This document shows positions 4,248 through 60,971 of a stretch of 64,000 nt of DNA, one piece after another. The notes below the pieces were generated by a model, which saw only the letters and a program-made list of their open reading frames with translations, made no database searches and was not told the origin of the DNA. Position 1 is the first letter of the stretch. Each line of letters starts with the position of its first letter. Both the position numbers and the translations under genes were made by a program. Origin of the DNA: Candidatus Levyibacteriota bacterium (GTDB taxonomy: Bacteria > Patescibacteriota > Microgenomatia > Levybacterales > UBA12049); contig OY970292.1 of the NCBI GenBank assembly GCA_963716145.1, positions 405,171-469,170 of the forward strand, read 5' to 3'.

Positions 4248-4271
4248 CTTTTACTTCGTACGAAGTAAAAG
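4248..4271. repeat. Perfect 24-bp palindrome CTTTTACTTCGTACGAAGTAAAAG spanning the rpsF stop codon.
   Basis: All 12 base pairs are self-complementary. It lies at the rpsF/ssb junction and may be an intercistronic hairpin or processing site. Confidence 0.6.
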
Positions 4272-7407: not shown

Positions 7408-7673
7408 AAAAGAATTATATCATAATATAGGTCTAAATACAATCTAATCTAGAATTAACACTTGTGTATTTTTACAGCAGGTCTTTAATTTTACGGTTTA
7501 GTCATTGGATTGAGTTGAGAATCAAGCGCGATCAGCTATTTCCGAAGAAGTTTCCATAACGTATCGTCTTTCTTTACATTTTCCATAAAAAATATATCAT
7601 GATGCTATTCAATATTTAGCAGCCAATAAATTCCTACATTCCAGAGTCTCTCCGAATCTGATAAAATGAGAGA

Positions 7674-10563: not shown

Positions 10564-11355
10564 TTACTTTTTTCTCTCAACGCTCACGATATACTCAGCT
10601 GTCTCGTAATAACCTTCGAGGAATTCGTCCAATTCTGCCTGATTGAGATAATATGTTCTCATCTCAGGATTTCTGACATATGGAACAATTGTTTTTACTA
10701 TATATTTAGAGCCAATATATCTAGCAGCTTCCTTTTTATTAATCGTTTTGGCTTTTCCGGACATTAAGGCATGATTGATCACTACATACTCCAGCTCCTC
10801 AATAGCTCTATTTGCAATATCAACCAGTCTTATAGCATCATCTTTTGAAACAAATTCTCCGTGTATTGCTCTATTGGCAACTTTTATGATATCTATTAGC
10901 AAATTTTGAAGCGATTCATCAATTACATCTTTCTCAAAAAGATCCACCGCAAGCTCTGTCAGACCAACTTTGTTTGACTTTTTTTGTTTCAAATAAATCT
11001 GCCCCAAGAACCTAACTCTTTTTTCGATTTCAATACGGGCTTTGGCTAGTGCGAGAGCCGGATCGCTCTCAACAAGGTCTTTTAAGATATCAGGTTTTTC
11101 TGAAGACAATTTTTTTTGTTTTTTCTCAGGAATTTTCTCAACTTTTTTCTCAATCTTTCTTATCTCATCATGGGTTATTTCAGCTTCAAATTCTCCAAAT
11201 TTTATTTTTTTAATCAATGGAATATATGGAATAAGAATAATAACTATCAAAAGCAACACAGTGGTGTTATCTATCCTAAAAAAATTATCTGACAGTCCGT
11301 GAAGTACTATCAGAACAATGATAATAGTAATAATTAATGCGTTCCGCTTTTTCAT
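10564..11355 (-). CDS. Hypothetical membrane-anchored protein with DUF4145-like helical repeats.
   Basis: N-terminal transmembrane helices. The blocks DPALALAKARIEIEKRVRFL and IIKVANRAIHGEF are repeated and resemble DUF4145. Confidence 0.4.
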   Translation of the reverse strand: MKKRNALIITIIIVLIVLHGLSDNFFRIDNTTVLLLIVIILIPYIPLIKKIKFGEFEAEITHDEIRKIEKKVEKIPEKKQKKLSSEKPDILKDLVESDPALALAKARIEIEKRVRFLGQIYLKQKKSNKVGLTELAVDLFEKDVIDESLQNLLIDIIKVANRAIHGEFVSKDDAIRLVDIANRAIEELEYVVINHALMSGKAKTINKKEAARYIGSKYIVKTIVPYVRNPEMRTYYLNQAELDEFLEGYYETAEYIVSVERKK

Positions 11356-11423
11356 AAAAAATAACTGGAAGAGAGTTGAGGCAGAGGTACTCTATAGAGT
11401 ATAGAGTGTTTATAAACTAATTA

Positions 11424-12107: not shown

Positions 12108-13547
12108 TTAGAATCTATTCCACAACACCTGATTTGTTACCTCGTGATGATAGATAATTTCCGATTGCTTGATAAGAGTTCCAAGCGCCTTGGGGCTTCT
12201 GTCGGCAGCAGCTTGTTTGAAAGATGCGTATTTTTCTTTATTGTCAGCACCCAAAATTTTACTCATAAAATCACTGGATTTAAAAATTCTAATCGCGTCA
12301 TAAATATTGTCAGGCAAGAATCTTGATCTTTCCCTCTTATCTTGATCCTTTTTAAGCTTGTCTCCTTCGCGTCCAACTCTAAGAATTGTGTACAAAACAA
12401 GATATGGATTTGCATCCGGTGCAACAGAGCGCACTTCAATCCTTGCTGTTCTTTCATTCCCAACCGGAATTCTGATCATCGATCCGCGGTCAAGGGCCGA
12501 AACTTTTATCTGATTTGGAGCTTCAAAATGTGGATCAAGCCTTCTATACGCATTTACTGAGGAATTAAAAACCAGGCAAATCTCAGGAGCATGCTGAAGA
12601 AGTCTTCCAAGAAAATCCCAGGCAGGTTTTGAAAGTCCATCCTGCCCTTTTGGGTCGTAGAAAATGTTTTTTCCCGTCTTCGCGAGCGAGAAATTGGTGT
12701 GCATTCCTGAACCATTGATTCCCATTGCAGGCTTTGGAAGAAAAGTCGCAGTCATTCCCATGGTTCTTGCAACCTGACGGCAGACTAATTTATATAATTG
12801 TATCTGATCAGCTGCACGGACAATATCCGCGTATGAAAAATTCATCTCAAACTGGGAAGGAGCCACTTCCGGATGATCCTTCTCGTTTCTAAATCCCATC
12901 GCGCGCTGTGCCTCAGCCGCGTGATCTATGAAAACACGCAGTTTATCAAGAGGAAGGGAATGAAAATATCCTCCGGTTGTTATGAGTTTTAAGCCTTCAT
13001 CCGGATTAAAATTTTGCTCCGAATTGATTCCATCAACCAAAAATCCTTCAATTTCTGATGCCGCGAATGCAGTAATCCCTTCTTTTTTTCTCAAGGCTTC
13101 TGAGTAAAGTTTTAATTGTCCTCGGAAATCCGATTCATATTGGGTATGGTTGCGGTTATGGACTGATGCAAAAAAGATTACTTTGCCGGGACCGAAAACA
13201 TCGGAGGGCAAATGGCGGATTGATCCCCAGTCAACATCAAGCCTGAGATCTGATTCAAATTGGGCTGAGAATCCTCTGATTGATGATCCGTCAAAAGTCA
13301 GATTGGCAATGGAGTCAAGGAAAAATTTCTTATCATAATCAAGCATATGAAATCTTCCCTCAATATCAGTAAAACAAATAGTAACCGCTTTAATTCTTTT
13401 TTCTTTTGCTAAATACAATTTATATTCTTTTTCCAGATCTTTGGGGCTGGCAGTAAGGGAATCGGCAGCAGCTTTTAAGTTCATTTCCTCCAATTTGTCG
13501 TAAGGAATTTCGAGAAATGTTCTTAGGTTTCTATGCGAATCATCCAT
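12108..13547 (-). CDS. glnA: Glutamine synthetase.
   Basis: 479 aa. Gln-synt N-terminal region (FTDIEGRFHMLDYD...) and catalytic domain motifs. Confidence 0.8.
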   Translation of the reverse strand: MDDSHRNLRTFLEIPYDKLEEMNLKAAADSLTASPKDLEKEYKLYLAKEKRIKAVTICFTDIEGRFHMLDYDKKFFLDSIANLTFDGSSIRGFSAQFESDLRLDVDWGSIRHLPSDVFGPGKVIFFASVHNRNHTQYESDFRGQLKLYSEALRKKEGITAFAASEIEGFLVDGINSEQNFNPDEGLKLITTGGYFHSLPLDKLRVFIDHAAEAQRAMGFRNEKDHPEVAPSQFEMNFSYADIVRAADQIQLYKLVCRQVARTMGMTATFLPKPAMGINGSGMHTNFSLAKTGKNIFYDPKGQDGLSKPAWDFLGRLLQHAPEICLVFNSSVNAYRRLDPHFEAPNQIKVSALDRGSMIRIPVGNERTARIEVRSVAPDANPYLVLYTILRVGREGDKLKKDQDKRERSRFLPDNIYDAIRIFKSSDFMSKILGADNKEKYASFKQAAADRSPKALGTLIKQSEIIYHHEVTNQVLWNRF

Positions 13548-17301: not shown

Positions 17302-17901
17302 TCAAACGTCATCAATATAATATCTGATCTCTTCTTTTTGAGGATTCAAAAGATTGTACAAATAAGTAATGTCTTTGTCTGTATGCCTAACGCATCCTGA
17401 ACTTCCCGAATTTTCAGCAGCTAAACGCGAGCTATCACCATTAATTCCGTGTAATCCAAAACTTCCGGGAAGTATCCAATCACACTGCCCATTGCACTCA
17501 AGATACGGTGTTGGACCATATGGATAATCCTCTGAATATGGAATATCTAGTATTAAAAAATACGGCGCGGTCTCCGGATCATCTTTGATTTCAACTTTCC
17601 CGGTGATTTTCCAATATTCCCTCCCCAACAATTTGGGCAGAGGCGTAGGGCGCTCACCTGGTATTCCTGTTTTTACCATAAATATTTTAACCAATTCACT
17701 GTTCTGTTTTTCACCCGGAACTCCAAGATACAAATATTCTTTATTTGATTTTCGATGAAGAACTAACCAGTGCGACTTTTTGGGAATTGTCGGCGCATAT
17801 ACTTCTTTATTCAAAATCCCAGCCAACAAAAACCCAAAAGCTACCAAAGTCAGAACGGCAATTAGCTGAAAAATGTGTCTTTGCGTGGTAGAATATATGC
17901 T
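17302..17901 (-). CDS. L,D-transpeptidase (YkuD domain).
   Basis: HGINGDSSRLAAENSGSSGCVRHTDKD is the catalytic His/Cys region. N-terminal transmembrane anchor. Confidence 0.75.
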   Translation of the reverse strand, partial: SIYSTTQRHIFQLIAVLTLVAFGFLLAGILNKEVYAPTIPKKSHWLVLHRKSNKEYLYLGVPGEKQNSELVKIFMVKTGIPGERPTPLPKLLGREYWKITGKVEIKDDPETAPYFLILDIPYSEDYPYGPTPYLECNGQCDWILPGSFGLHGINGDSSRLAAENSGSSGCVRHTDKDITYLYNLLNPQKEEIRYYIDDV

Positions 17902-17902
17902 C

Positions 17903-19021
17903 ATGAAGAAATTAAATAATCCTAATTCCTTATTTATTTTTTTCTTAGTCATATTCTTTTTACTAATGGGCGTATATCTTCTATTGCCTGAAAAAACTCG
18001 GAATATCAAACCTAATAATACCACAGTTATTAGCGAACTATTAAATAGTAGTACCCCTACTCCGGCAAAAACTCAACTTCAAATTCCACCCCCTCAAAAA
18101 ATTCTCCCAACAAACTATCACATTTTTCAAAGCTTTAATAATTGTGGGCCTGCAGCGCTCTCAATGGCTCTATCGCATTATGGAATTACCAAAACACAGG
18201 AGGAATTGGGGCAAAGCCTCAGACCGTACCAAATCGCAAATGGCGATAATGATGATAAGTCTGTAACGCTTGATGAACTCGCCGAGAAAGCAAAAGAATA
18301 CAATCTGATTCCCTATCACCGCCCAAATGGAAGTATAGACTTAGTAAAGCGTTTCATAGCATCCGACATACCGGTTATCGCCCGCACCTGGCTGCATCCA
18401 AACGAAGACATCGGACATTTCAGAGTTATTAAAGGCTATGATGACAGCACTCAGGAAATAATTCAGGATGATTCTTTCGAGGGGCATGATTTGAGATATA
18501 AGTATTCAGATTTTAACGGTATGTGGGGGAAATTTAGCTATGAATACCTGGCCCTTGTGCCAAAAGGTAAAGAGCAAATCGCCCAAGCGATATTAGCAAC
18601 TGATTTTGATAAGCAGCTTGCTTGGGAAAGAGCAGTAAAAAATGCAGAAAAGGAATTGGCTAAAAATCCTCAGGATACATACTCCAGATTCAATTTGTCA
18701 GTCGCTCTTTACAACACGAAAGATTATCAAAAATCAGTTATTGAATTTGAAAAAGTCGAAAACCAACTGCCTTTCCGGACTCTTTGGTACCAGATTGAGC
18801 CGATCCAGGCATATTATGAGATTGGAGACTATCACAGAGTCTTTGCCATAACTGATCAGATTTTAAATAATCAAAACAGAGCCTTTTCAGAACTCTATAT
18901 TATTAGAGGGAAAATTTATCAGAAGCAGGGAGAAATTGACTCTGCAAAACACGAATTCGAAAAGGCGGTGCTCTACAATTCTAACTTAAAAGAAGCAAAA
19001 GAAGCTCTAAATTCACTTTAG
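17903..19021 (+). CDS. Peptidase C39-like domain protein fused to TPR repeats.
   Basis: NNCGPAALSMALSHYG is the C39-like catalytic Cys region. The C-terminus has TPR-like repeats and the N-terminus a transmembrane anchor. Confidence 0.65.
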   Translation: MKKLNNPNSLFIFFLVIFFLLMGVYLLLPEKTRNIKPNNTTVISELLNSSTPTPAKTQLQIPPPQKILPTNYHIFQSFNNCGPAALSMALSHYGITKTQEELGQSLRPYQIANGDNDDKSVTLDELAEKAKEYNLIPYHRPNGSIDLVKRFIASDIPVIARTWLHPNEDIGHFRVIKGYDDSTQEIIQDDSFEGHDLRYKYSDFNGMWGKFSYEYLALVPKGKEQIAQAILATDFDKQLAWERAVKNAEKELAKNPQDTYSRFNLSVALYNTKDYQKSVIEFEKVENQLPFRTLWYQIEPIQAYYEIGDYHRVFAITDQILNNQNRAFSELYIIRGKIYQKQGEIDSAKHEFEKAVLYNSNLKEAKEALNSL

Positions 19022-27275: not shown

Positions 27276-28715
27276 TCATACGCTGGGTAAATTTTCTACC
27301 GAGGTTTTCAGTTTATATTGCCAGTTGCGATCCCCCACTTCTTTTTCGGTTCCGGGGATATTTATTCGATCAGTAGTCAAAAGCCAATCCTGAATTGAAA
27401 TAATTACGGTTTCTGCTGGCGAGTCGATTATTCCATCGCGAAGATTTTTCGCGAATACTTTCTCAACCGAATTGTACTTCACACCGCATGCACGAGCAAG
27501 TGATTTTCTTTGCTTTGGTGATAAGTTCCGCAGATACACAAGTAGTGTCTCCGTATCATGTGTTGTCGTGTACGCAACGGTCAAGGCAGGATAGTTGCTG
27601 ATCTTTGCGTATTCTTTATTTATCTTTTCCTTTTTTTCATTCAGAGCAAATCGAAGAATTTTAATTCCCGGAGTTTTGAGCTTATTAAGAGAATTCCTCA
27701 GCTCGCTGAGATGCTCCCCGCTATCTTCGGCAAATATTGAGAGTCCCGCTCTCTTTCCATAAAGCATCAACTCCTCAAATACAACATGCCCCGGACCTTT
27801 TATGTACTTATCGTTATTTTCATTTGTTAAATCTATCTCTCCGTAATCAAACAGTCCTTTCGCGTGATCAAAACGAATTGAATCAAAAAGAAGCGACAAA
27901 TAATGCAATCTGCATTTCCAAAAATCAACAACTCTTTTGCTTTGAGTCTTATCCCCCCATTTATAAAGCGGATGTCCCCAAACTTGTCTTCCAAAATGAG
28001 CGGACGGACTATCCGGAATTCCTGAGACATAACGTGTCCTGCCGTCTTTCTCAAACTGAAAAACGCCTTGATTAGCCCAAACAAGCGGGCTCTGCATAGA
28101 GACATAAAACGGTAAATCGCCTATCAGTTTGATTTTTAGTTTTTTCGCTTTGTTTTTTAATTCCTTGTACTCTTTATGCAGATGGTACTGAACTAAGATA
28201 TGTTGGTCAATTTCCTTTTTTAATAAGTTGGAATAACTATCTATTGCGATTTTTTTTCTTTTTCTTAAATCAGGAATCCATTCTCTCCAATCATCAGTTC
28301 CCAAGTGATCGCGAAGCGCGCAAAAAAGCGCGTAATCTCCTATCCACTCCTTGTTTTCATTGACAAACACTTCAATCTCTTTTTTGCTCTTGCGCTCTTG
28401 CGCTCTTGCGCCCACTGATAAATACCTTGGGTCCAGTCCAATTCCATATCCTTTATACGGAGATGGAACATGCCGAGTTGCTGAGCCTTTTTCGAGTTGA
28501 GTCTGATGGAGTGGAAGTAATTGCCAGGCCGATTGATTAGTTTTATGCAGCCAGTCGAGGAAATATAAGCCTGTTTCAAAAATTCCCTGATCTTCTTTCT
28601 TGGATTTTAAACTTGAAAGCGCGGAAACCGGCACAAGCGTACCAATAATTTTCTTTTTTTGAGTCACATAGATAATTATATCATCTATGCAATTAGCGAC
28701 TTTGGGGAGGAACAA
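27276..28715 (-). CDS. malQ: 4-alpha-glucanotransferase (amylomaltase, GH77).
   Basis: WQLLPL, LIGDLPFYVS and RIDHAKGLF motifs. It contains the 26-nt (GCTCTTGC)x3 tract at 28389-28414. Confidence 0.8.
   Translation of the reverse strand: MFLPKVANCIDDIIIYVTQKKKIIGTLVPVSALSSLKSKKEDQGIFETGLYFLDWLHKTNQSAWQLLPLHQTQLEKGSATRHVPSPYKGYGIGLDPRYLSVGARAQERKSKKEIEVFVNENKEWIGDYALFCALRDHLGTDDWREWIPDLRKRKKIAIDSYSNLLKKEIDQHILVQYHLHKEYKELKNKAKKLKIKLIGDLPFYVSMQSPLVWANQGVFQFEKDGRTRYVSGIPDSPSAHFGRQVWGHPLYKWGDKTQSKRVVDFWKCRLHYLSLLFDSIRFDHAKGLFDYGEIDLTNENNDKYIKGPGHVVFEELMLYGKRAGLSIFAEDSGEHLSELRNSLNKLKTPGIKILRFALNEKKEKINKEYAKISNYPALTVAYTTTHDTETLLVYLRNLSPKQRKSLARACGVKYNSVEKVFAKNLRDGIIDSPAETVIISIQDWLLTTDRINIPGTEKEVGDRNWQYKLKTSVENLPSV
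28389..28414. repeat. 26-nt tandem micro-repeat GCTCTTGCGCTCTTGCGCTCTTGCGC inside malQ.
   Basis: Identical to 56899-56924 inside dnaX. Both encode ARAQERKS in the same frame. Confidence 0.75.
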
Positions 28716-34406: not shown

Positions 34407-34509
34407 TTCCAGAACACTCGGAAAACTCCGATTATCAGTAATTTCAGGCCGTCTGAAAACCTGAAAGTCAGAATATCTGGATTCCTGAGTATTCTGAGTA
34501 TTCTGAGAT
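34407..34509. repeat. R3-family MITE-like element, copy a, with terminal inverted repeats TCAGAACACTC / GAGTATTCTGA.
   Basis: It shares the 20-mer CAGAACACTCGGAAAACTC and the inverted 3' end with 58067-58180. It ends 2 nt before the ATG of the FAD oxidase gene. Confidence 0.7.
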
Positions 34510-36578: not shown

Positions 36579-36623
36579 TGCTGTATTATAGGACTAATAT
36601 TAGCAAAAGTCAAATCTGGGTAG

Positions 36624-39547: not shown

Positions 39548-39641
39548 GGGAAATAAGTATAGAGAGATAAAAATAAAAATACAATATGACAAACTAGAGC
39601 AAAATTGTAAATTAAAGACTAAACTTTTATAATGGTTAGAC

Positions 39642-46802: not shown

Positions 46803-46903
46803 AAATCAATTGTAGCAGGAAAACTAGAATTATGAATTAAGAGGTGCGAATTAAGATTTGGCTTAAAATAAATATAATACCCTTAATTCTTAACTCTTGC
46901 TTC

Positions 46904-52254: not shown

Positions 52255-52526
52255 TATGTGTTTTTCATCCTTTGACCACAGACTCTCTGCGGGTTCGTCT
52301 TCTACGGGAAATTTTTTGTCGCTTATTTGTCTGTTGATTCCTGCTAAAATATCAGGAACGCAAGGATTCTGCAGACTCCATTACTTTTGTCCGCTTCGCA
52401 TCATCCATTCCTTCAAACTGCAATGCTCTACCCAATCTAAACCTGGCTTCAGGAACAAGTCCTTCTGCTGGTGCTGGTGCTACTGCCGGCTTAATACTTT
52501 GTTCTATGTAATTCATAAGTTCCTTT

Positions 52527-52556
52527 CAAAACACAAAAAACCCGCTTTCTGGCGGG
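52527..52556 (-). terminator. Rho-independent terminator (minus strand).
   Basis: Minus-strand sense reads CCCGCCAGAAAGCGGG followed by TTTTTTGTGTTTT. It lies downstream of the 52638..53300 gene. Confidence 0.65.
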
Positions 52557-52637
52557 TGATTTTCTGTAAATCGACACCGCCCTTACGGGTTGACGAGAAT
52601 GACGACTACTGAAAGTGAATTTCTAAATTTGTACATA

Positions 52638-53300
52638 CTAAATATATTTTATCACTAAAAATGACATAATCAAGTAGCAAAATAGCTCTACCCGCTGAGC
52701 ACCGCGGAATGTTTCTGTTTTTTGCTGGCTCATTTTAAGCGCAAATCCCGTTGTTTTTGCCTTCTTACCCATTCTATTGCGTCCTTTTCCTGTTGCTTGA
52801 GGAAGCTGTTCCTTTTCCTCAGCTTCTTTTTTCTTTTTCTGCTCTTCCTCTTCTTCTTGTTGTTTCTTACGCTCTGCTCTCTGCTGCTCCTGCTCGCGTC
52901 GAAACTTCTTAACTCTATCCTCAAGCGTCATCACCGACTCATCAAAATAATGCTGCATGTGAAACATGATATCCTCGGCACCCTTGGCGTCTCCCTTGTC
53001 CAGATATTGCTGTCTGGCTATAAATTTCGCGTGGTCCCCTGCATTACTGGTTCCTGAAAGGATGTGTACTGCTTTCTTGGGTTTAGGAGACGGTGCGGCT
53101 TGCTGCTGAGGATTTTTTGCGTTTGGATCCTTCGGATCTGCTGAAGACTTATCGGTTACACCATACAATTGAGCTACAATGTCGTTTGTTACGGCTTTTG
53201 CTTGCTGCTTGGCGGCGTCACTCAATGCTTTAACGGGTTTTGTGAGAGAAATTCCATTTTCAAAACTTGTTTCTTCGCTCCCAAAAGTATTTTTTGCCAT
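52638..53300 (-). CDS. Hypothetical Lys/Glu/Gln-rich protein.
   Basis: ORF. The C-terminal 30 codons look like read-through. The true stop may lie earlier. Confidence 0.4.
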   Translation of the reverse strand: MAKNTFGSEETSFENGISLTKPVKALSDAAKQQAKAVTNDIVAQLYGVTDKSSADPKDPNAKNPQQQAAPSPKPKKAVHILSGTSNAGDHAKFIARQQYLDKGDAKGAEDIMFHMQHYFDESVMTLEDRVKKFRREQEQQRAERKKQQEEEEEQKKKKEAEEKEQLPQATGKGRNRMGKKAKTTGFALKMSQQKTETFRGAQRVELFCYLIMSFLVIKYI

Positions 53301-53356
53301 AACTTAATAATACTACCAATGCTAAAAATCAACAAATTACATAAATTATTATAACT

Positions 53357-53965
53357 CTAATACTCACTTCTCCCCACCATGGCTTGGTCTAAGGTGGTTG
53401 AATCAGCATATTCAATATCCGCTCCTGTCGGTAAGCCCCTGCCTATCCTTGTGATTCTCAGTTCTGAGTTCAAAGTTTTAAGTTGTTTCGCAAGAAACAT
53501 AGCTGTCGCTTCTCCCTCCATAGTGGGATTGGTTGCCAATATAACTTCCGTAATTCTTGGTTCTAAATTCTTGATTCTTTGTACGAGTTCGCTTATGCGA
53601 ATCTCGTCCGGCCCGATATTATTTAACGGATCTATTTTCCCATGCAAAACATGATAAACTCCCTGGTACTTTCCGCTCTTTTCAAATGCCAGAATATCAA
53701 GTGGCTGCTCCACGACACAAATTATTTGCTGATTCCGCTTATTATCCGAACAAATACTGCATGGATCTATCTCATCAACTGAAAAACAAATTGAGCAAAT
53801 AATAGTATCTTTTTTTAGATTCTGAACTGACAAAGCAAACCTATCAAGTTCACCTTGCGGAACATGCAGAAGATAAAAAGCGAGGCGTTGAGCAGTCTTG
53901 GGACCCACCCCCGGCAAACGCTCAAAACCCTCAACTAAATTGGTAATTGCTTTTGGAATACGCAT
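53357..53965 (-). CDS. recR: Recombination protein RecR.
   Basis: HhH N-terminus, C4 zinc finger (CSICFSVDEIDPCSIC) and a Toprim domain. Confidence 0.9.
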   Translation of the reverse strand: MRIPKAITNLVEGFERLPGVGPKTAQRLAFYLLHVPQGELDRFALSVQNLKKDTIICSICFSVDEIDPCSICSDNKRNQQIICVVEQPLDILAFEKSGKYQGVYHVLHGKIDPLNNIGPDEIRISELVQRIKNLEPRITEVILATNPTMEGEATAMFLAKQLKTLNSELRITRIGRGLPTGADIEYADSTTLDQAMVGRSEY

Positions 53966-53967
53966 AA

Positions 53968-54083
53968 TCTAATTTTCAGTTTTTAATTTAAAATTTGAAA
54001 TGAATATTTAATGTTTTAAATTTAAATTTTTAAACATTTTATACTTCAATGAAAATTGAAAATTTCAAATTGAAAATTGTTCT
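53968..54083 (-). repeat. R2-family AT-rich element, copy a (upstream of recR).
   Basis: The 51-nt block 53985-54035 is identical to 59358-59408. The tail TTCAATGAAAATTGAAAATTTCAAATTGAAAATT is conserved. Confidence 0.8.
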
Positions 54084-54086
54084 ATC

Positions 54087-54980
54087 TCATTTCCTATCAT
54101 CTCCCCAACCGACAGGATTTCTAACTTTGGAAACTTCTTTTCTTGTGGGACACAACACTGAATCTGTCACAAAAACTTTATTTATAATTGATTCTTGTAG
54201 CAACTTAGGTGCATCCACTGAAAAAATCGGATGAGTAACAAAAGCATAAATTTCTTCAATCCCGTTTTTTTGTAAAAGTTTTGCCGACTCGATAAGTGTT
54301 CCCCCGCTTGATGCCATATCGTCAACAATAAAAGCTTTTTTTGCATTTGGGGACAAATCTCCTTCAATCTTTTTAATCTGAATACTCCCGGTTGCAAGAT
54401 CGCGGTCTTTCACTGTCGCGATCCATGGCATATTACCAAGCGAATCGGACATTATCTTTATCCTGCGCAATCCTCCCATGTCAGGAGAAACCAAAACAGA
54501 ATTATCATCAATTCCGATTTCTTTAATCTTCTGCGCAAATAAAGGGAGAGCCGACAAATGCGAGACAGCAATAGAAAAAATCTCAGGCGTTTTTACGGTA
54601 TGAAAATCAATAGCAATGACTCTGTCTATTTTTACTGATTGTAAGGCATTCACTATCACCTCAAGCGAAACTGCTTCTCCATCGCGAAAAACATGATCCT
54701 GCCTCTGATACCCAAGATACGGAATAATGACGGTTATTGATCTTGCTCCTGATCTCCTCAGGCCATCCGCGATAAAAAAAAGCTCCATATAATTTTGATC
54801 AACCGGGGCTGCGGTGGGTTGAACAATAACGGTATCTTCCTCTAGAACGGGCGTTTCAATCCTAACGCGTCTTTCCCCGTCGGGAAAAACAAATATTTCA
54901 ATCGGGGAAAGTTGTAGGTTCAAATGCTTTACAATTTTTTCAGCCAAAGGCTTATTGCTACTCCCGCTAAATATTTTCAT
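54087..54980 (-). CDS. prs: Ribose-phosphate pyrophosphokinase (copy 1).
   Basis: Prs N- and C-terminal PRPP-binding motifs (DLHA-like region, VLVDDMIDT-like FIVDDMASSGGT). Confidence 0.8.
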   Translation of the reverse strand: MKIFSGSSNKPLAEKIVKHLNLQLSPIEIFVFPDGERRVRIETPVLEEDTVIVQPTAAPVDQNYMELFFIADGLRRSGARSITVIIPYLGYQRQDHVFRDGEAVSLEVIVNALQSVKIDRVIAIDFHTVKTPEIFSIAVSHLSALPLFAQKIKEIGIDDNSVLVSPDMGGLRRIKIMSDSLGNMPWIATVKDRDLATGSIQIKKIEGDLSPNAKKAFIVDDMASSGGTLIESAKLLQKNGIEEIYAFVTHPIFSVDAPKLLQESIINKVFVTDSVLCPTRKEVSKVRNPVGWGDDRK

Positions 54981-55031
54981 CTGTGATTATTGTACTATTA
55001 ATGAGGCTTCGGGGGCAAGATAAATCAAAAT

Positions 55032-56012
55032 CTAGAGTATCAAATCACGGCTGATGGACTCACCTGTCTGAATACGTCTTATTGCTTCGGCCAAAAGCGG
55101 AGCGATTGAGGCAATTTTAATTTTTTTATTATTTTCCACCTCCGGTTTTTGTTTTATTGTATCAGTGACAAATACTTCATCAATTGCCGGTGCTGCAAGC
55201 CTTTCCATCGCGGGACCTGAAAATATTCCGTGGGTTGCTGCCAAACGAATACTGGCAGCACCTTGTTTCTTTATAAAATTCGCAGCACTCACAATAGTTC
55301 CTGCCGTATCAATCATATCATCAACCAAAAGAACATTTTTATCTTTTACATTTCCAATCATATATAGTGCTTCTGATTGATTATTCACAGCGACATCCCG
55401 CTCTTTATAAACAAGCGCAACACCTTCTGCTCCCAGAAGCTTTGCGTAACCAGTAGCGCGCACCATACCGCCCTTATCAGGAGAAGCAATTACCAGATTT
55501 TTTAGCTTTTGCGCTTTAATCATGGGGATAAGAGCATATGATCCGTATAAATTATCCCATGGAATATTGACAAATCCCTGCTGCTGCTGCGAATGTATAT
55601 CAATTGTCAGGATTTGGGTCGCGCCGGCTGTTGTAATCATATTGGCAATAAGCGAGGAACTGATTGGAACTCTTGGCATTTCTTTTCTGTCCTGGCGGGA
55701 ATATCCAAAGTACGGAATAATCGCGGATATTTCTGCAGCAGAAGAACGCTTAGCTGCATCAATCATAAGAAGTAGCTCCATAATCCTATCATTCACAAAA
55801 GGAGCTGTTGGCTGAATTATAAAAACATGCCTGTTACGCATACTTACCGGTATACGTACTCTAACTTCCCCATCGGAGAAATAACTCAACGGCTCAAAAA
55901 CTTTTTGCCCAATTAGTTTGGCAATATCCTGCCCCAGCTTGGTATTAGCCTTTCCTGACAAAAGAATAAACTCACCCACTTTAAAATCACTTATGCTTTT
56001 CTTATTTGCCAT
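55032..56012 (-). CDS. prs: Ribose-phosphate pyrophosphokinase (copy 2).
   Basis: GEFILLSGKANTKLGQDIAKLIG ... LLVDDMIDTAGT. Confidence 0.85.
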   Translation of the reverse strand: MANKKSISDFKVGEFILLSGKANTKLGQDIAKLIGQKVFEPLSYFSDGEVRVRIPVSMRNRHVFIIQPTAPFVNDRIMELLLMIDAAKRSSAAEISAIIPYFGYSRQDRKEMPRVPISSSLIANMITTAGATQILTIDIHSQQQQGFVNIPWDNLYGSYALIPMIKAQKLKNLVIASPDKGGMVRATGYAKLLGAEGVALVYKERDVAVNNQSEALYMIGNVKDKNVLLVDDMIDTAGTIVSAANFIKKQGAASIRLAATHGIFSGPAMERLAAPAIDEVFVTDTIKQKPEVENNKKIKIASIAPLLAEAIRRIQTGESISRDLIL

Positions 56013-56030
56013 ATATTTTAATACTACCAA

Positions 56031-56145
56031 TAACCCAATATGTAAATACTACCAATCAATTCCCAATGCAAAATAAACAAATAATTCTGCATTAAACCAT
56101 TTTTATTGATTTGTTTATTGGCTTATTTGTTTATTGGTAGTATTT
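56031..56145 (-). repeat. AT-rich dyad element upstream of prs copy 2. A 14-bp inverted repeat AATACTACCAATAA / TTATTGGTAGTATT plus direct repeats.
   Basis: Seen directly. It shares the ATTGGTA motif near the start codon with the R1 elements. Confidence 0.6.
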
Positions 56146-56439
56146 CTACTTTCCACCTAATAATCCTCCAAGACCGCCCATTCCTCCCATGCTTTGCAAT
56201 TTCTTGGCAGCAACTTCCTGAGACTTTTTAACTGCTTCATTAACTGCTCCTCTTATGTCGCTGTCTGATTTCCCGTTGCTTATAATTTCCCGTATCTCCT
56301 GATCTCCTGAAATACGCACATAAACACCGTGCTTATTTATCTCAACTTCCTCCATTTTGAGCTGCTTTTGAATCTGCATCGCCTGATCGCGCATTTTTTT
56401 AAGTTCTCCCAATTGACCAAATGGATTATTCATATTCAA
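56146..56439 (-). CDS. ybaB: Nucleoid-associated protein YbaB/EbfC.
   Basis: MNMNNPFGQLGELKKMRDQA ... ends in a Gly-rich tail. Conserved dnaX-ybaB-recR order. Confidence 0.85.
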   Translation of the reverse strand: MNMNNPFGQLGELKKMRDQAMQIQKQLKMEEVEINKHGVYVRISGDQEIREIISNGKSDSDIRGAVNEAVKKSQEVAAKKLQSMGGMGGLGGLLGGK

Positions 56440-56476
56440 TCACCCCCAATTAATTTTCAGTTTTCAATTGAAAATT
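56440..56476 (-). repeat. R2-related short element with the palindrome TTTTCAATTGAAAA.
   Basis: AATTTTCAGTTTTCAATTGAAAATT lies between dnaX and ybaB. Confidence 0.5.
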
Positions 56477-58066
56477 TTATTTACCTTTCAATTGTACCTC
56501 AACTGCCACATCTTTTCCAGTAAGCATTTTAGCTATTCTGGAAATCTCATTTAGTGTTTTAACATCACTAAGCCGTTCTTTGTGAAATTTAAATTCTGTC
56601 TCTATAATAAGAGTTTTTTTATCAAAACTGCTAAGGCGTGCTCCCCTCAGAACTCCGGCAATTGTGTGATTATAATTTTTCATTTCAGAAATTATGCTTC
56701 TCCAGAATGTCTCAAGCCATTCTTTGGAGAGAGCGCCTGTTGCTGAAGTATGCAAAAGATTGCCACTCTTATTGACTGGCAAAGCCTCTTTCGCCGCTGA
56801 ATCCTCCTTTGGAGGACCATACATTGCTTTGATTTTTTTCATATTTCCATCCTGTTTTCTAAGCGTTGAAACAGAAACTCCGGATTCTTCTTCATTATTT
56901 TCGCTCTTGCGCTCTTGCGCTCTTGCGCTTAACTGACCAATCTCTATGATCGCCAATTCAAGCGGCAGCTGCGGAAGAACTGAGTATTTGGTATCCTGGT
57001 AAACCTGATTAAAAATCTTGGCTAGAGTTTTTAATTCGTTGACATCAAATTCTACATTCAAAGATCGTTCATTTTCTGATTTTTTCTCTACCCCAACTTC
57101 TTCCAACAATCTTTTATTTAGCTCCATTAAAATTTGTACAATAAAAAATTTAATATCAATTCCTTGTGAAATTAATGTTTCAATTATCCTAAGCCCATAT
57201 TTTACGCCCTCGTTTTTATCGCCATTCTTAAGTGAAGCAAATAAGTTTGCGATGTGCAGAGGAATGCTTGTTGTCTTGTATGACTTTTCAAGAAGTGCAT
57301 GTGTAATTTTAGTGGTATTATTTAGTGATATTTCCTCCAAAATCTTTGCGGCGTCCCGAAAGCCACCATCTGCCATTTTCGCGATTGAATAAAGAGAATC
57401 GTCATCTATTTTGATCTTCTCCGCATCAACTATGCGTTTGAGTGAATGCACAATCTCCTCCTCGGTTGCCAGATTAAAATTGATATGAAAGCATCTTGAT
57501 ACAATTGTGTCAGGAACTTTTTGCGGTTCAGTGGTACAAAGAATGAACATCGCATGCTCCGGAGGCTCCTCAAGAGTCTTGAGAAGAGCATTAAACGCTT
57601 CAGTTGTGAGCATATGCACCTCGTCAATTATGTAAACCTTTTTACTTGAGCTCATAGGCGCAAGTCTGATTTTTTCTTTTAGATCCCTAATCTCATCAAT
57701 CCCCCTGTTGCTAGCAGCATCAATTTCCAGAATATCCATGTTGGAACCATTAGTTATCGAGATGCACTGTTCACATTTGTTGCAAGGCTCTATGCTTCGC
57801 AAACTTTGAACTGAGGACTCAGAACTAAGAACATTTCCTTTGAGTTCTTTGTTCTTTGTTCTTTGTTCTTTGTTAACTGTACGGCCAGTACAGTTAACGA
57901 CTTTTGCGATTATTCTGGCGGCTGAAGTTTTACCAAGTCCTTTTGGGCCTGTAAAAAGAAAAGCGTGGGCCGGTTCTTTGACCAATAGAGAAGTTAAAGT
58001 CTCACGCACTGACTTACTGTCAAGATCGTCAATTTTTTGCGGGCGATATTTACGATAATATACCAT
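56477..58066 (-). CDS. dnaX: DNA polymerase III subunit gamma/tau.
   Basis: AAA+ motifs GPKGLGKTS and DEVHML, plus a zinc module (CNKCEQC). It contains the (GCTCTTGC)x3 tract at 56899-56924. Confidence 0.9.
   Translation of the reverse strand: MVYYRKYRPQKIDDLDSKSVRETLTSLLVKEPAHAFLFTGPKGLGKTSAARIIAKVVNCTGRTVNKEQRTKNKELKGNVLSSESSVQSLRSIEPCNKCEQCISITNGSNMDILEIDAASNRGIDEIRDLKEKIRLAPMSSSKKVYIIDEVHMLTTEAFNALLKTLEEPPEHAMFILCTTEPQKVPDTIVSRCFHINFNLATEEEIVHSLKRIVDAEKIKIDDDSLYSIAKMADGGFRDAAKILEEISLNNTTKITHALLEKSYKTTSIPLHIANLFASLKNGDKNEGVKYGLRIIETLISQGIDIKFFIVQILMELNKRLLEEVGVEKKSENERSLNVEFDVNELKTLAKIFNQVYQDTKYSVLPQLPLELAIIEIGQLSARAQERKSENNEEESGVSVSTLRKQDGNMKKIKAMYGPPKEDSAAKEALPVNKSGNLLHTSATGALSKEWLETFWRSIISEMKNYNHTIAGVLRGARLSSFDKKTLIIETEFKFHKERLSDVKTLNEISRIAKMLTGKDVAVEVQLKGK
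56899..56924. repeat. 26-nt tandem micro-repeat GCTCTTGCGCTCTTGCGCTCTTGCGC inside dnaX.
   Basis: Identical to the malQ copy. It encodes ARAQERKS in a non-conserved linker. Confidence 0.75.
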
Positions 58067-58180
58067 ATTTCAGAACACTCGGAAAACTCGGTGAATCAGC
58101 GCTTCGGACAATCTGATATTCAGACACATCAAACTCTCTGACCTTCTGAGTGTTCTGAGTTTTCTGAATAAAACTCATTT
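58067..58180. repeat. R3-family MITE-like element, copy b. It lies between the dnaX start and the ybeY stop.
   Basis: 5' TTCAGAACACTCGGAAAACTC ... 3' CTGAGTGTTCTGAGTTTTCTGAA. The terminal inverted repeats and the 20-mer are shared with 34407-34509. Confidence 0.7.
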
Positions 58181-58567
58181 TTACTCATGATGAAGACCAA
58201 GCAAATGAAGCATTCCGTGCCTTACAAGCTCCTCAACTCTCTCGTCAACCAACAGTTCGTCGCGTGCTGCTTCTTTTATTACCTCAGGATAAGAAATAAC
58301 TATGTCTCCAAGCCGCGTTATGCCTGATGGCAATTTTGATGATTCGCCTTCAGCAAGTGGAAAAGAAAGAACATTGGTCGTCGTATCCTTATCGCGGTAC
58401 TGCTTATTGAGCTTCTTCATCTTGCGGTCTCCAACTATCGCGACAGAAACTTCAATCGGGCTTTTGAGCTCATTTTCTTCGCAAACACTGTATATAGCAG
58501 ATTTTATCTTCTTACGAGCAACTTTATATCTGCTTTCAACATAGATGAGAACATTAATATTATCCAT
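58181..58567 (-). CDS. ybeY: rRNA maturation endoribonuclease YbeY.
   Basis: HGMLHLLGLHHE (H..H.....H). Confidence 0.85.
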   Translation of the reverse strand: MDNINVLIYVESRYKVARKKIKSAIYSVCEENELKSPIEVSVAIVGDRKMKKLNKQYRDKDTTTNVLSFPLAEGESSKLPSGITRLGDIVISYPEVIKEAARDELLVDERVEELVRHGMLHLLGLHHE

Positions 58568-58669
58568 ATGCTATCTTCCATTTTCCAGGTTCCTTCTGCC
58601 ATTAATTGTCCATTTTAAAATTATCAAATCGAAAATAAATGGAAAATGGTAAATGGACAGTGGAAAATC

Positions 58670-58858
58670 TTAAAAGAGTTTAACTCTCGCTGCTTCTTCC
58701 TGCTTCATTTTTTTCTTAAGCTTTTTAGCAAGTGACGGCTTGAGATAAAATTTGCGTCTTTTGGCCTCCTGGATAATGCCAGCGTCCATTACTTTTTTTG
58801 AAAAATTTCTGATTACCTGATCATCTGACTGACCGGGCATTTTTTTAACATGTACCAT
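58670..58858 (-). CDS. rpsU: 30S ribosomal protein S21.
   Basis: MVHVKKMPGQSDDQVIRNFSKK ... RRKFYLKPS, S21-like. GGTGG Shine-Dalgarno upstream. Confidence 0.7.
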   Translation of the reverse strand: MVHVKKMPGQSDDQVIRNFSKKVMDAGIIQEAKRRKFYLKPSLAKKLKKKMKQEEAARVKLF

Positions 58859-58880
58859 AAAACAACACCACCTTTCGATA

Positions 58881-58966
58881 AATTTCAAATAAATACCAAT
58901 TTCAAATTACAAATGCTAAATTAATTATTGGGAATTGGATATTTGAAATTAGAAATTTGTAATTCC
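58881..58966 (-). repeat. R1-family element, copy d (upstream of rpsU).
   Basis: AATTTCAAATAAATACCAATTTCAAAT ... ATTTGAAATTAGAAATTTG. Confidence 0.75.
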
Positions 58967-59011
58967 TTGCTATATTCTACCCCAAATCCTGCCTTGTGTA
59001 AACAGTAGCTT

Positions 59012-59338
59012 CTACATCCCGTCCGTATTTTTCATCGGGCCCATGAGGTGGATGTGGAAATGTTTTATCGCTTCAGCTCCCCCGGCATTAATACCTATTC
59101 TATAACCTTTTCCCTTATCAAGTCCTTCCCGATTGGCTATTTTCTTAACAACTTCAAGCAATTTTTGCATCAAATCAGGCTCAACTGATGAAAATTCTGG
59201 GACATGGACTTTCGGAACAATCAAAAGATGAACAGGCTTCACCGGATGAATATCAGGAAAAACCATTACGTCGCTATCTTCATACAAAAATTCTTTTTTA
59301 ATCTCCCCTGTTACAAATTTACAAAAAAGACAATCCAT
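59012..59338 (-). CDS. HIT-family protein.
   Basis: Histidine triad HFHIHLMG. Confidence 0.85.
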   Translation of the reverse strand: MDCLFCKFVTGEIKKEFLYEDSDVMVFPDIHPVKPVHLLIVPKVHVPEFSSVEPDLMQKLLEVVKKIANREGLDKGKGYRIGINAGGAEAIKHFHIHLMGPMKNTDGM

Positions 59339-59340
59339 AC

Positions 59341-59448
59341 ATTAATTTTTAATTCTCAATTTAAAATTTGAAATGAATATTTAATGTTTTAAATTTAAAT
59401 TTTTAAACCTTTGGATTTCAATAAAAATTGAAAATTACAAATTGAAAA
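59341..59448 (-). repeat. R2-family element, copy b (upstream of the HIT gene).
   Basis: 51-nt identity with copy a, plus the conserved tail. Confidence 0.8.
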
Positions 59449-60354
59449 TTAAATTCTCTCTAGCACTCTAATTATATCAGCTAGGGATAATTTTGTCGGG
59501 CGCATTTTGGGATTTTTGGGAGTACCATTGAGAAGCATTTTTTTGGAGATGTGCAGAAACCAAGTGGCATCTGGATCAATTTTCCTCAATTGCTCATAAG
59601 CCAGAGTCAGGTCTATGCCTTTGTCTTTTACTGTCGCCGGTAATGTCTTGATCCTGACATATCCCTTTCTCGGATCTTTACGGACTACAAGAACATAGCC
59701 TTGTTTTTGTGCCAGTTTCAAAACCGTGTCATTCAGAGTCTCAAACCCCATCGCTTTTCCGTATTTTGTCTTAAATTCAATCCCCTTCTCCTTAATCTCC
59801 TTCTCAGCCCAAATACGGTTCTCAAAAGTGTGAACCAGACCCTCCAGACAATCAATTCCAAATTTCACGTATTCACTATCTTGTCCTGGTTTTTGTAACT
59901 TTACCCCCTCCAAAAGACCAAGTAAAGAAAATTCGTGATAGTCAGCTGAGGCGTCTTTCCAATAAACCTCTTTAAAATGATCAGTATCGACAATTATCTT
60001 GACAATTCTGGATACTGCTTCGATATGCTCAGGAGTCAACGTGTCTCCAGCCTTTTTAATCTGCTTTTGCACATAATCCCAGCTGAGCGATGCTCCGCAA
60101 ACAGTTGTATCTTGAGTTTGGTGATGATCAAGCGGCCCAAGCCCCGTGTCAACATGTATGATTTCCTCCTCGCCAATAAGTTCTATCGGGTCTTTTCCTT
60201 GATTCTTAATTCTTAATTCTTGCTTCCCCAATCTTTGCCCCGCAGGGACAAACTTGACTTCAGCTTTCTCCCATCCGGGTAAAAACCTTTTTATAATCCA
60301 GACAGAACCTATCGCATCCCAGTCTGGGGACATGTGGGTAACAATGATTTTCAT
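59449..60354 (-). CDS. DHH-family phosphoesterase (NrnA-like).
   Basis: HMSPDWDAIGS ... HVDTG ... LDHHQ. Confidence 0.7.
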   Translation of the reverse strand: MKIIVTHMSPDWDAIGSVWIIKRFLPGWEKAEVKFVPAGQRLGKQELRIKNQGKDPIELIGEEEIIHVDTGLGPLDHHQTQDTTVCGASLSWDYVQKQIKKAGDTLTPEHIEAVSRIVKIIVDTDHFKEVYWKDASADYHEFSLLGLLEGVKLQKPGQDSEYVKFGIDCLEGLVHTFENRIWAEKEIKEKGIEFKTKYGKAMGFETLNDTVLKLAQKQGYVLVVRKDPRKGYVRIKTLPATVKDKGIDLTLAYEQLRKIDPDATWFLHISKKMLLNGTPKNPKMRPTKLSLADIIRVLERI

Positions 60355-60540
60355 TAGGGTAAGTATACGCTAACAATTTTTAATTTTCAATTTTTAACTT
60401 GAAATGAAAGCTAAATGTTTTAAAATTTAATTTTGAACCTTGCCTGCCGGCAGGCAGGAATTCATTGAAAATTGTAAATTTTAAATTGAAAATTTTGAGT
60501 TGAACTATAGATTGACATGAACCCTTGACAAACATCCGTA
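60355..60540 (-). repeat. R2-family element, copy c (diverged). It carries an embedded GC palindrome GCCTGCCGGCAGGC at 60442-60455.
   Basis: Similar AT-rich blocks (TTGAAATGAAAGCTAAATGTTTTAAAATTTAATTTTGAAC; TTCATTGAAAATTGTAAATTTTAAATTGAAAATT). Confidence 0.6.
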
Positions 60541-60569
60541 AATGTCTGAAGATATAAATATAGACTATT

Positions 60570-60971
60570 ATGGATCCGACATCACTTTCCAATCTTGACC
60601 CAAAATTGAAGGATACGTATGAACGGGTGATGGGGACTTCTACTCCTGCCCCGGCAGATGCTTCAGCACCTACTACTCCTACTGCGTCTCAAACTCTTGC
60701 CGACTCAGCCCCCGCAGCTGACTCTTCAACGACAGAGAATACGCTAAGCCCGCTTCCGGAAAATACATCTCCGGCTTCTGCCGAACCACATCCTGAGACA
60801 GTTACCATAAACCAGCCATTACCACCGACACCAGCCGCTTCAGCAATAATAGATAAGCCACATGGACATTCTGGACTAATTGTAGTGTTCTACGTTTTGG
60901 GAGCAATAGTGTTTTTTGTAATCTATATTTTCTTCTGGGCCAAAATCTTCAATATTGCTCTTCCGTTCTAA
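60570..60971 (+). CDS. Hypothetical Pro/Thr/Ala-rich protein with a C-terminal transmembrane helix.
   Basis: ORF with a low-complexity extracellular-type region. Confidence 0.45.
   Translation: MDPTSLSNLDPKLKDTYERVMGTSTPAPADASAPTTPTASQTLADSAPAADSSTTENTLSPLPENTSPASAEPHPETVTINQPLPPTPAASAIIDKPHGHSGLIVVFYVLGAIVFFVIYIFFWAKIFNIALPF

Follow-up and report, generated by a model that had tools for sequence, protein, structure and literature searches.

The question raised by this locus is what a perfectly repeated block of intergenic DNA represents in a bacterium of the CPR/Patescibacteria, whose 1-Mb genomes are expected to hold little spare DNA. The window, that is, the whole stretch of 64,000 nt analyzed here from a 1,142,061-bp contig of a Candidatus Levyibacteriota bacterium, contains a 51-nt sequence, AATTTAAAATTTGAAATGAATATTTAATGTTTTAAATTTAAATTTTTAAAC, at two places. 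The preliminary description of this DNA had stated that positions 53985-54035 and 59358-59408 are identical; they are, base for base, and both copies are on the plus strand. These are the only two exact occurrences in the window. No other was found within 3 mismatches, and the number expected from 100 dinucleotide-preserving shuffles was 0. The likeness exceeds the 51-nt block, reaching 90% over 77 nt (53963-54039 versus 59336-59412), and the 34-nt tails that had been reported as related (54045-54078 and 59417-59450) indeed differ at just 2 positions.

Perfect identity over 51 nt is also what an assembly error would leave, so that the duplication might be an artefact. We rejected this explanation, whose probability we consider negligible. 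The flanks of the two copies are unique and differ from each other, the outer 20-30 nt have diverged, and the repeat is present in many other assemblies. Moreover, two contigs that were separately assembled from run ERR11593400 reproduce both junctions, being identical base for base to window positions 53040-54009 and 59379-60461. Both contigs end inside the repeats, as a true repeat predicts. The practical effect, as these two Logan contigs show, is that repeats of this type break short-read assemblies of such genomes.

The repeated block belongs to a longer element, which we term R2. Copy A (53970-54084, plus strand) scores 63.8 bits with the family profile, is predicted to form a long imperfect hairpin, and occupies the whole spacer between prs (54087-54980) and recR (53357-53965). 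The 51-nt block is at 53985-54035 within it, and its conserved core, TTGAAATGAA-N5-AATGTTTTAAA (53995-54020, plus strand), is antisense to the genes and can also be read as TTGAAA-16-TAAATT. Copy B (59343-59452, plus strand, 67.1 bits), with the second exact block at 59358-59408, occupies the whole spacer between the DHH gene (59449-60354) and the HIT gene (59012-59338), and the stop codon TAA of the DHH gene (59449-59451) falls within its right terminus. A third copy had been described as diverged and as extending from 60355 to 60540. This copy C is real and has a profile score as high as those of the other two (67.1 bits); the span was too wide, the true element being 60374-60497 on the plus strand. 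It stands in the divergent spacer between the DHH gene on the minus strand and a gene on the plus strand (60570-60971), and the G+C palindrome reported inside it was confirmed as a perfect 16-nt TGCCTGCCGGCAGGCA at its tip (60441-60456). The short relative that had also been pointed out corresponds to a mini-copy at 56451-56476 (plus strand), which matches the left end of copy A with 93% identity in an overlap of 27 nt. It retains the left and the right terminus, lacks the middle, has an 8-bp AATTTTCA/TGAAAATT hairpin, and lies between the dnaX stop codon (56477-56479) and ybaB. The neighbors of the window copies, on the minus strand, are recR (53357-53965), two prs genes, ybaB, dnaX, ybeY, rpsU, and the HIT, DHH and proS genes. 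From the end of the element to the downstream start codon there are 4 nt at recR and at the HIT gene, 19 nt at the DHH gene, and approximately 11-18 nt at ybaB. The closest named relatives of the DHH-family protein of the window are Levybacteria/Levyibacteriota.

The R2 element is approximately 105-125 nt long and almost pure A/T, with a G+C content of 13-20%. Read on the plus strand of the window, it starts with TAATTT and three to four AATTTNN heptads, continues with the core and a variable tip, and closes with a right half comprised of a conserved ATTCA(A/T)TGAAAATTG-type segment and three to four NNAAATT heptads that end in AAAATTA. The termini (TAATTT.../...AAATTA) are inverted, and the arms are complementary via their AATTT/AAATT blocks. 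Owing to the complementarity of its halves, R2 forms an imperfect palindrome over its entire length; this heptad-based palindrome had been overlooked in the preliminary description. R2 is nevertheless oriented, because the family profile scores 43-70 bits in the forward and 10-37 bits in the reverse direction. No open reading frame (ORF) is possible within it, as TAA is frequent.

Public genomes and metagenomes were scanned with the 26-nt core, which has 21 fixed bases, and 8 and 29 stretches matched; the 1.14-Mb source contig of the window was returned by neither scan. Approximately 22 non-redundant core matches have full arms, representing about 20 sites in about 17 genomes or populations of Microgenomates. 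One contig of Candidatus Daviesbacteria RIFCSPHIGHO2_12_FULL_37_16 holds four R2 copies in 12.6 kb. Further copies without an exact core were obtained from the profile search (L027, 8588-8697, and L016, 855-961). The core had no match in IMG/VR viral contigs, nor did R2 match any of 50,697 phage records by blastn, and a viral or phage origin was rejected. In Rfam, the window had no match at the gathering score, and R2 itself had none even at E<=1; with no tRNA or tmRNA either, a known structured RNA was rejected as well.

Where R2 is flanked by protein-coding genes, it runs from the stop codon of one gene to the start codon of the next, both genes being co-directional. The TAA of the upstream gene is commonly the first three bases of the R2 terminus, and in five copies the distance from stop codon to core is 22 nt. 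Past the opposite terminus, the start codon is only a short distance away. The copies had been presented as belonging to upstream regions; this characterization did not hold for the family as a whole, since R2 fills the whole stop-to-start spacer and its terminus often contains the upstream TAA. The sites include pheS|pheT, rpsL|rpsG, prs|recR and DHH|HIT, and R2 is found in core operons of ribosomal protein, tRNA-synthetase and replication genes. The core points in gene direction at 11 sites and in the opposite direction at 5, including copies A and B, while one site (copy C) is divergent; the bias toward the downstream gene (11 versus 5 sites) is not significant. It had been claimed, too, that all copies abut a start codon in a fixed orientation. 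The window copies do end near the start codon, but orientation varies over the family, with about 11 sites opposite to the window copies, 5 the same, and two copies in 23S rRNA, one each way.

These last two copies lie in the 23S rRNA gene of L027 (duplicate L036), which is 4103 nt long against a model of 2925 positions (Rfam, 2220 bits). The same gene holds a LAGLIDADG ORF. One copy (9338-9450) interrupts the tip of helix 25 (model position 583/584) and the other (8588-8697) that of helix 45 (model position 1218/1219), just before GGUAGGGGAGCGU; the two are in opposite orientations. Each is mounted on a 17-bp stem with 16 of 17 pairs formed in the rRNA sense (CUUGUyyUUCrrACAAG...CUCGUyyGGArrACGAG), and, with pairing assigned by hand, the differences between the stems of the two sites are compensating. 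Helices 9, 25 and 45 are the classical sites of intervening sequences (IVSs), where the tetraloop is replaced by an extended stem-loop that is removed by RNase III (PMC4990558), and a survey of rRNA insertions in CPR bacteria recorded numerous short insertions of no assigned class at these positions and suggested that they are IVSs (PMC11270868). The location within 23S shows that R2 is compatible with very strong transcription in either orientation, that it is not a strong terminator or roadblock, and that it has to be either folded into an extension of the helix or excised.

Next, we compared the gene order around the window copies with that of relatives, as the preliminary description had proposed. 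The order DHH-HIT-rpsU-ybeY-dnaX-ybaB-prs-prs-recR is kept in three relatives, L039, L040 and L042/L043, whose DHH proteins are 85%, 86% and 79% identical to that of the window, respectively (69-75% in DNA). The family profile found no R2 in L039-L043. The prs|recR junction, 121 nt with R2 in the window, measures 2 nt in L039 (TAA AT ATG), and L040 and L042 have unrelated hairpins there, of 87 and 94 nt; thus, presence is polymorphic between the window and its syntenic relatives, where the junction is empty or differently filled. At DHH|HIT, another hairpin family is found in L039 and L040 and a third one in L042. The 51-mer of the window recurs with one mismatch in L025/L035, adjoining unrelated genes. 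R2 is therefore patchy over genomes and sites, as is the case for mobile or horizontally spread repeats. No transposase was found within 10 kb of the R2 copies of the window, and no parent insertion sequence was identified in the 64 kb covered. About half of the copies can be read as flanked by a TA...TA target-site duplication, which in A/T-rich DNA is inseparable from the terminal bases, and the rRNA copies have no TA flanks.

The identity of the two window copies had been taken to imply recent copying or strong constraint. If R2 evolved as neutral DNA, orthologous copies would be expected to diverge like the fourfold degenerate sites of adjacent genes. At pheS|pheT (L021, L033, L037), 1-2 of 105 positions differ, while the adjacent coding DNA differs by 15-25% and its fourfold sites by 34-66%. 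At rpsL|rpsG (L012, L013, L018), R2 differs by 10-14% versus 38-44% at fourfold sites, and the gene-proximal arm varies more than the distal arm. R2 orthologues are thus 3-50 times more conserved than adjacent fourfold sites, and the constraint covers the loop as well as the arms. A/T-biased mutation may slow the neutral rate in pure A/T DNA, perhaps two- to three-fold as estimated from general mutation spectra; a bias of this size cannot explain a 20- to 50-fold difference. Of the two explanations offered, constraint is thus borne out, both by the near-identical 51-mer in L025/L035 and by orthologous copies far below fourfold divergence; copying within this genome is likely also to have occurred recently, since the syntenic relatives are without R2.

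We then examined whether the palindrome behaves as a conserved RNA structure, a check that the preliminary description had recommended. When the predicted hairpin of copy A was mapped on 18 copies, 86.6% of cells were paired; sliding the partner by 1 column reduced this value to 61-64%, and by 2-3 columns to 28-42%. The pairing was found to come from the invariant AATTT/AAATT blocks, with the two variable positions of each heptad mostly mismatched, and covariation was absent among the 18 copies, since partners shuffled among sequences pair as well as the real ones (87.1% versus 86.6%). Because of the mismatched heptad positions, the predicted stem is weak, with 5-bp A/U helices separated by 2x2 loops. 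RNAalifold returned no consensus long stem for the family, and the predicted arm duplex within a copy was no better than that between copies (-12.7 versus -15.1 kcal/mol). Compared with dinucleotide shuffles, 21 copies gave a mean folding z of about -2 on both strands, ranging from +0.4 to -4.7, so that the potential to form a hairpin is moderate. The best folders were the rRNA copies (z to -4.7), copy C, L006 and L025; weak folders were the pheS|pheT copy (z -0.4/-0.7) and the mRNA strand of copy A (z -0.7 to -1.5). When G.U asymmetry was used to infer the folding strand, the mRNA strand folded better in 29 cases versus 16 among 45 co-directional spacers, which is not significant (Wilcoxon p = 0.09). 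Within the R2 family, the core-plus strand is predicted to fold better in 19/22 copies whatever the gene orientation, so that the folding asymmetry belongs to the element. Orthologous hairpins at neighboring junctions (ybeY|dnaX, dnaX|ybaB, DHH|HIT) had no compensatory changes in their predicted minimum-free-energy pairs, and between the two ybeY|dnaX hairpins the differences fell preferentially in columns that are unpaired. What favors folding is that copy C and L018 have each independently acquired a G+C mini-hairpin precisely at the tip, in corresponding positions, and that the rRNA copies sit at helix tips. By these predictions, a hairpin structure of R2 is plausible and copy-dependent.

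The transcription context of the window copies was derived from promoter-like and terminator sites; promoters of canonical form are present in the window. A canonical terminator with a G+C hairpin and a T-run (52535-52556, minus strand) follows the gene downstream of recR and closes the string of genes that contains copies A and B. Upstream, a promoter-like TTGAAA-17-TATACT (60362-60390, minus strand; 10/12 match) has its -35 in the left terminus of copy C and its -10 in unique DNA, 7 nt before the ATG of the DHH gene, a leaderless-type spacing. Together, these two sites place copies A and B inside a plausible DHH-to-recR transcription unit, which has at least one internal promoter-like site, conserved in relatives, before the second prs. 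In at least 15 genes of the window, the ATG lacks a Shine-Dalgarno sequence and is preceded by a TATAAT-like box whose end is 5-11 nt away. The (T/G/A)AAAAT hexamer of R2 stands where these leaderless-type -10 boxes lie. At five independent sites without a Shine-Dalgarno sequence (recR, HIT, L007a, the pheT group and L015), exactly 5 nt separate the end of the last ...AAAATT of the element from the ATG, and at two more the gap is 9 nt; a gap of about 20 nt occurs only where a Shine-Dalgarno sequence intervenes, as in L025 and at the mini-copy preceding ybaB, or, in copy C, a separate -10. The regular spacing favors a role as start signal; it also fits a hairpin that joins stop and start codons at the base of its stem. 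As candidate promoters, L015 has the arrangement TTGAAA-17-TATAAT-6-ATG, the termini at recR and HIT match at 8/12 (TTCAAA-16-GAAAAT/AAAAAT, the -10 ending 6 nt before the ATG), and the core, read as TTGAAA-16-TAAA(A/T)T, matches at 9-10/12 on the plus strand in all three copies. Such numbers are to be read against the many matches that A/T-rich DNA gives by chance, 34 being found in the region versus 21.6 expected. A terminator scan returned no site within R2.

Altogether, R2 very probably is a family of small dispersed palindromic repeats of the MITE/ERIC/Correia/rRNA-IVS kind in Microgenomates of the Levybacteria and Daviesbacteria type. What it does is less certain. Our best reading, to which we assign a probability of roughly 45%, is that of a dispersed palindrome resembling Correia, ERIC and IVS elements, which is transcribed together with the adjoining genes and is probably an object of RNase III processing. 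Copies would be gained at new sites and would persist where an extra RNA hairpin is harmless, namely in the stop-start gaps of operons and at the tips of 23S helices 25 and 45. The RNA would fold back such that the upstream stop codon and the downstream start codon meet at the base of one long A/U stem. This stem, by analogy with rRNA IVSs and Correia elements, is a probable RNase III substrate, and R2 would then serve as an intercistronic site of processing or stability, not as a terminator. Several observations count against this reading: covariation and a consensus long stem are lacking, the arms are not matched copy by copy, and some well-conserved copies fold barely better than shuffles. 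What RNase III would probably cut in the rRNA copies is the adjoining 17-bp stem with its G+C pairs, which is absent from the window copies. A plain hairpin role leaves the constraint on the loop unexplained, and no sign of a mechanism by which copies would move was found, be it a transposase or a target-site duplication. The chief rival, which we find somewhat unlikely, is that R2 donates promoters. The gene-proximal terminus may be a weak sigma-70-type promoter for a leaderless or very short-leader downstream mRNA, with the terminal (T/G/A)AAAAT as -10 and a TTGAAA/TTCAAA-type heptad as -35, and the core may be a second, inward-reading promoter. Such a role suits the 5-nt distance at five independent sites, the Shine-Dalgarno-less genes with their boxes before the ATG, the arrangement in L015, the -35 that copy C supplies to the DHH gene, and the 9-10/12 match of the core; Correia elements, moreover, make promoters at either or both ends (PMC2649163). 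It is less easily reconciled with the 8/12 matches at recR and HIT amid frequent chance matches, with copies inside 23S and between genes that are normally co-translated (pheS|pheT, rpsL|rpsG), with the greater variability of the gene-proximal arm at rpsL|rpsG, with a constraint that spans the whole element and not the 40-60 nt of a promoter, and with a core promoter that faces away from the downstream gene at 5 sites, copies A and B among them. The promoter and hairpin roles can coexist, as they do in Correia elements.

If R2 had no host role at all, it would be a purely selfish or neutral palindrome, tolerated only because, when folded, it spares stop-start coupling and rRNA helices, and the identity of copies would reflect recent copying or gene conversion. 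The patchy distribution, with syntenic sites empty or differently filled, the local clusters (in the window, 3 copies within 7 kb; in the Daviesbacteria contig, 4 within 12.6 kb), the internally deleted mini-copy, the other hairpins nested at the tip, and the general view of IVSs as parasitic (PMC4990558) all agree with this explanation. We nevertheless judge it improbable, since orthologous copies are 3-50 times more conserved than fourfold sites while their flanking genes have diverged by at least 20%; neutral decay would not suffice unless conversion from other copies were continuous, and the distance to the start codon is regular. That the invariant positions are the AATTT/AAATT blocks and not the paired partners, and that sequence rather than pairing is conserved even in poorly folding copies, would be explained by an array of DNA-level binding sites, with AATTT recurring at 7-bp intervals and the two arms mirroring each other, to which a protein of the nucleoid, of recombination or of transposition would bind. 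Such an array is quite improbable: no candidate protein was found, most DNA-binding domains could not be packed at a 7-bp spacing, proteins arrayed stably along the 23S gene would hinder its transcription, and the G+C mini-hairpins at the tip better suit a folded strand. A hairpin directly after a stop codon also recalls an intrinsic (Rho-independent) terminator or attenuator, which we regard as highly improbable, because R2 has no G+C stem and, in either orientation, no T-run after it, because the genome has canonical terminators such as that at 52535-52556, and because copies stand in the 23S rRNA gene and between pheS and pheT. Guide-RNA loci, which have been reported from CPR bacteria, were considered in view of the CPR host and of the short repeats, in which 2-nt positions vary. 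[quoted passage not shown] R2 has a period of 7 nt, occurs as single dispersed copies, and has housekeeping neighbors only, and no Nop/Tas domain was found in the ORFs of unknown function within 10 kb of it; a TIGR-Tas array was rejected on unit length, arrangement and the missing Tas gene, and neither it nor another guide-RNA locus merits more than a trace of credence.

A broader view, which we offer as a speculation and hold to be unlikely, is that R2 and the sibling hairpin cassettes at neighboring junctions form one class of exchangeable palindromic modules in Microgenomates. These modules would serve as 23S IVSs and as 'operon punctuation' selected by the host, in which RNA processing would be joined to a start signal for genes of the leaderless type that have no Shine-Dalgarno sequence. 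The origin of rRNA intervening sequences has been an open question since 1990 (PMC4990558). If true, such a class would give bacterial IVSs a concrete origin, as copies of a dispersed repeat family, and would reveal a CPR-specific organization of polycistronic expression. A role in gene expression is directly testable, owing to the placement of R2 exactly 5 nt before start codons that lack a Shine-Dalgarno sequence.

How does R2 compare with known systems? REP, ERIC and Correia elements shape mRNA processing and the supply of promoters in well-studied bacteria. Correia elements are defined by a Neisseria-specific consensus, with 26-bp inverted repeats, a TA duplication and an IHF site. Inspection by eye of the R2 copies read gave no match to the Correia WATCAANNNNTTR. 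Correia elements (CREE/NEMIS) of Neisseria are approximately 100-150 nt long, with inverted ends and a conserved core; they are dispersed by or between genes and co-transcribed, their hairpin is cleaved or bound by RNase III, and they can create promoters at either end (PMC2649163, PMC10969869). R2 has the same size, inverted termini, a core, an operon-internal position and outward promoter-like termini. It differs in its unrelated sequence, its host from another phylum, its almost pure A/T heptad arms, and its presence in 23S helix tips, and neither a TA duplication nor an IHF site could be established in it; as both sequence and host differ, the analogy with Correia elements is functional only. 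ERIC (IRU) elements of enterobacteria are imperfect palindromes of approximately 127 nt in transcribed intergenic regions, found in either orientation, which affect mRNA decay via RNase E, and whose sequence is strikingly conserved across species while their locations differ (PMC10969869). R2 shares with them the imperfect palindrome, the probably transcribed spacers, the either-way orientation and the conserved sequence. Sequence and host are again unrelated, and ERIC is neither heptad-built nor A/T-pure and is not known in rRNA helix tips.

REP/REPIN elements are extragenic palindromic doublets forming long hairpins, which are retained at orthologous sites and, inside operons, lie where a gene ends on its 3' side (PMC3116915). 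Unlike R2, they have short G+C-rich stems and a conserved GTAG-type head, and they depend on a RAYT gene; R2, at 13% G+C, has no G+C stem, and no RAYT gene was seen in the 64 kb covered of the 1.14 Mb. Prokaryotic MITEs are shorter than 500 bp, A/T-rich and intergenic, with terminal inverted repeats and stem-loop transcripts (PMC10969869). R2 likewise is shorter than 500 bp and non-coding, has several copies (three full and one mini within 7 kb of the window), and ends in the terminal inverted repeats TAATTTT.../...AAAATTA. It differs from generic MITEs in being palindromic over the whole element and not just at its ends, and neither a target-site duplication nor a parent insertion sequence was identified for it. 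With 23S IVSs the likeness is one of position: the two copies in L027 (9338-9450 and 8588-8697) replace the tips of helices 25 and 45 with stem-loops of approximately 145 nt, including the 17-bp basal stem, whereas the window copies lie between protein genes, outside rRNA, and without a G+C-containing basal stem. An IVS is excised from the precursor by RNase III and the ends are not re-ligated, a fate that position and form suggest for the L027 copies (PMC4990558, PMC11270868). In the literature searched, which was not exhaustive, there was no description of the R2 family or of such a dual location in bacteria, of classical IVSs whose families have further copies scattered among the spacers of operons, or of anything comparable to REP, ERIC or Correia elements in CPR/Patescibacteria. 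In conclusion, R2 is a new family of a known general kind, belonging by sequence, host or partner genes to none of the Correia, ERIC, IVS and REPIN classes. What is unusual about it is the heptad-built, almost pure A/T body, the fit from stop to start codon, the very strong conservation, and the dual location in operon spacers and at IVS sites, by which R2 links rRNA intervening sequences with intergenic repeats, two kinds of element that are usually treated separately.

We compared window positions 53900-60600 junction by junction with the three relatives that keep the same order of genes from DHH to recR (L039, L040 and L042). Most co-directional junctions of this conserved string carry a hairpin that spans from stop to start in each genome, while some junctions are empty (0–16 nt). 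The same junction holds different hairpin families in different genomes. The hairpin cassettes of the conserved string appear to undergo rapid gain, loss or swapping. In window spacers outside this string, promoter-like sequences are found in place of hairpins (z near 0).

The spacer between ybeY and dnaX is filled by a long hairpin whose arms consist of tandem TTCTGAG/ACTCAGAA units (58067-58180; −35 kcal/mol, z −3.0). Its orthologue in L039 lies at the same junction (13020-13132), and differences between the two are enriched in unpaired columns. A related copy is located at 34407-34509 of the window, after a gene ending at 34119. A second A/T-rich palindromic family, R1, follows the pattern AATTTCAAATAAATACCAATTTCAAATATCCAATTTCTAAT ... 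ATTTGTAATTTGATATTAGAAATTTGAAATT and is distinct from R2, the dispersed palindromic repeat. One R1 copy occupies the HIT|rpsU spacer (58880-58965), while three others occupy consecutive spacers (3165-3256, 3500-3591 and 4180-4250) of a minus-strand gene string, which from reading the sequence we take to be rpsF-ssb-rpsR. The R1 hairpins of the window are significant, with z from −3.5 to −5.8.

At the prs|recR junction, the prs gene adjoining R2 copy A encodes a C-terminus (54087-54130) ending in SKVRNPVGWGDDRK before the stop, versus an AEMIAKEIKD-like ending in all three relatives. The C-terminus differs from all three although the DNA remains alignable, which suggests that the end of this gene was frameshifted or remodelled where it meets the element. 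In L039, the relative in which this junction is empty, a transposase-like gene with an integrase core (rve_3/HTH) directly follows recR (17864-18973).

At least 15 window genes have a TATAAT-like box ending 5–11 nt before the ATG and lack a Shine-Dalgarno sequence (for example 36585-36590, 46809-46814, 7414-7419, 39628-39633 and 54989-54994), which suggests that leaderless or very short-leader mRNAs are frequent in this genome; strong GGAGG-type sites are present at other window genes. A canonical intrinsic terminator on the minus strand (CCCGCCAGAAAGCGGG then TTTTTT; 52535-52556) is located within a 383-nt stretch holding no convincing gene (52255-52637). Two different coding regions share the 8-nt tandem repeat GCTCTTGC in three to four units (28373-28419 and 56890-56936); in one of them, dnaX, the repeat is translated into repetitive AQERKS-like sequence.

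The minus-strand 23S rRNA gene of L027 (6115-10217; 5S rRNA at 5873-5990) exceeds the model by about 1.2 kb and contains, besides two R2 inserts, a LAGLIDADG ORF (6620-7093). The CCAATAA/ACTACCAAT hairpin family varies among relatives in the junction that it occupies: it is found at 56031-56145 in the window and at 10886-11014 and 12677-12828 in L040. Between the DHH and HIT genes of L039, such a hairpin is split (10949-10993 and 11357-11417) by a gene in its loop (10994-11356) encoding a 23S_rRNA_IVP (PF05635) protein. This arrangement looks like that of an rRNA intervening sequence with an ORF, but lies outside rRNA.
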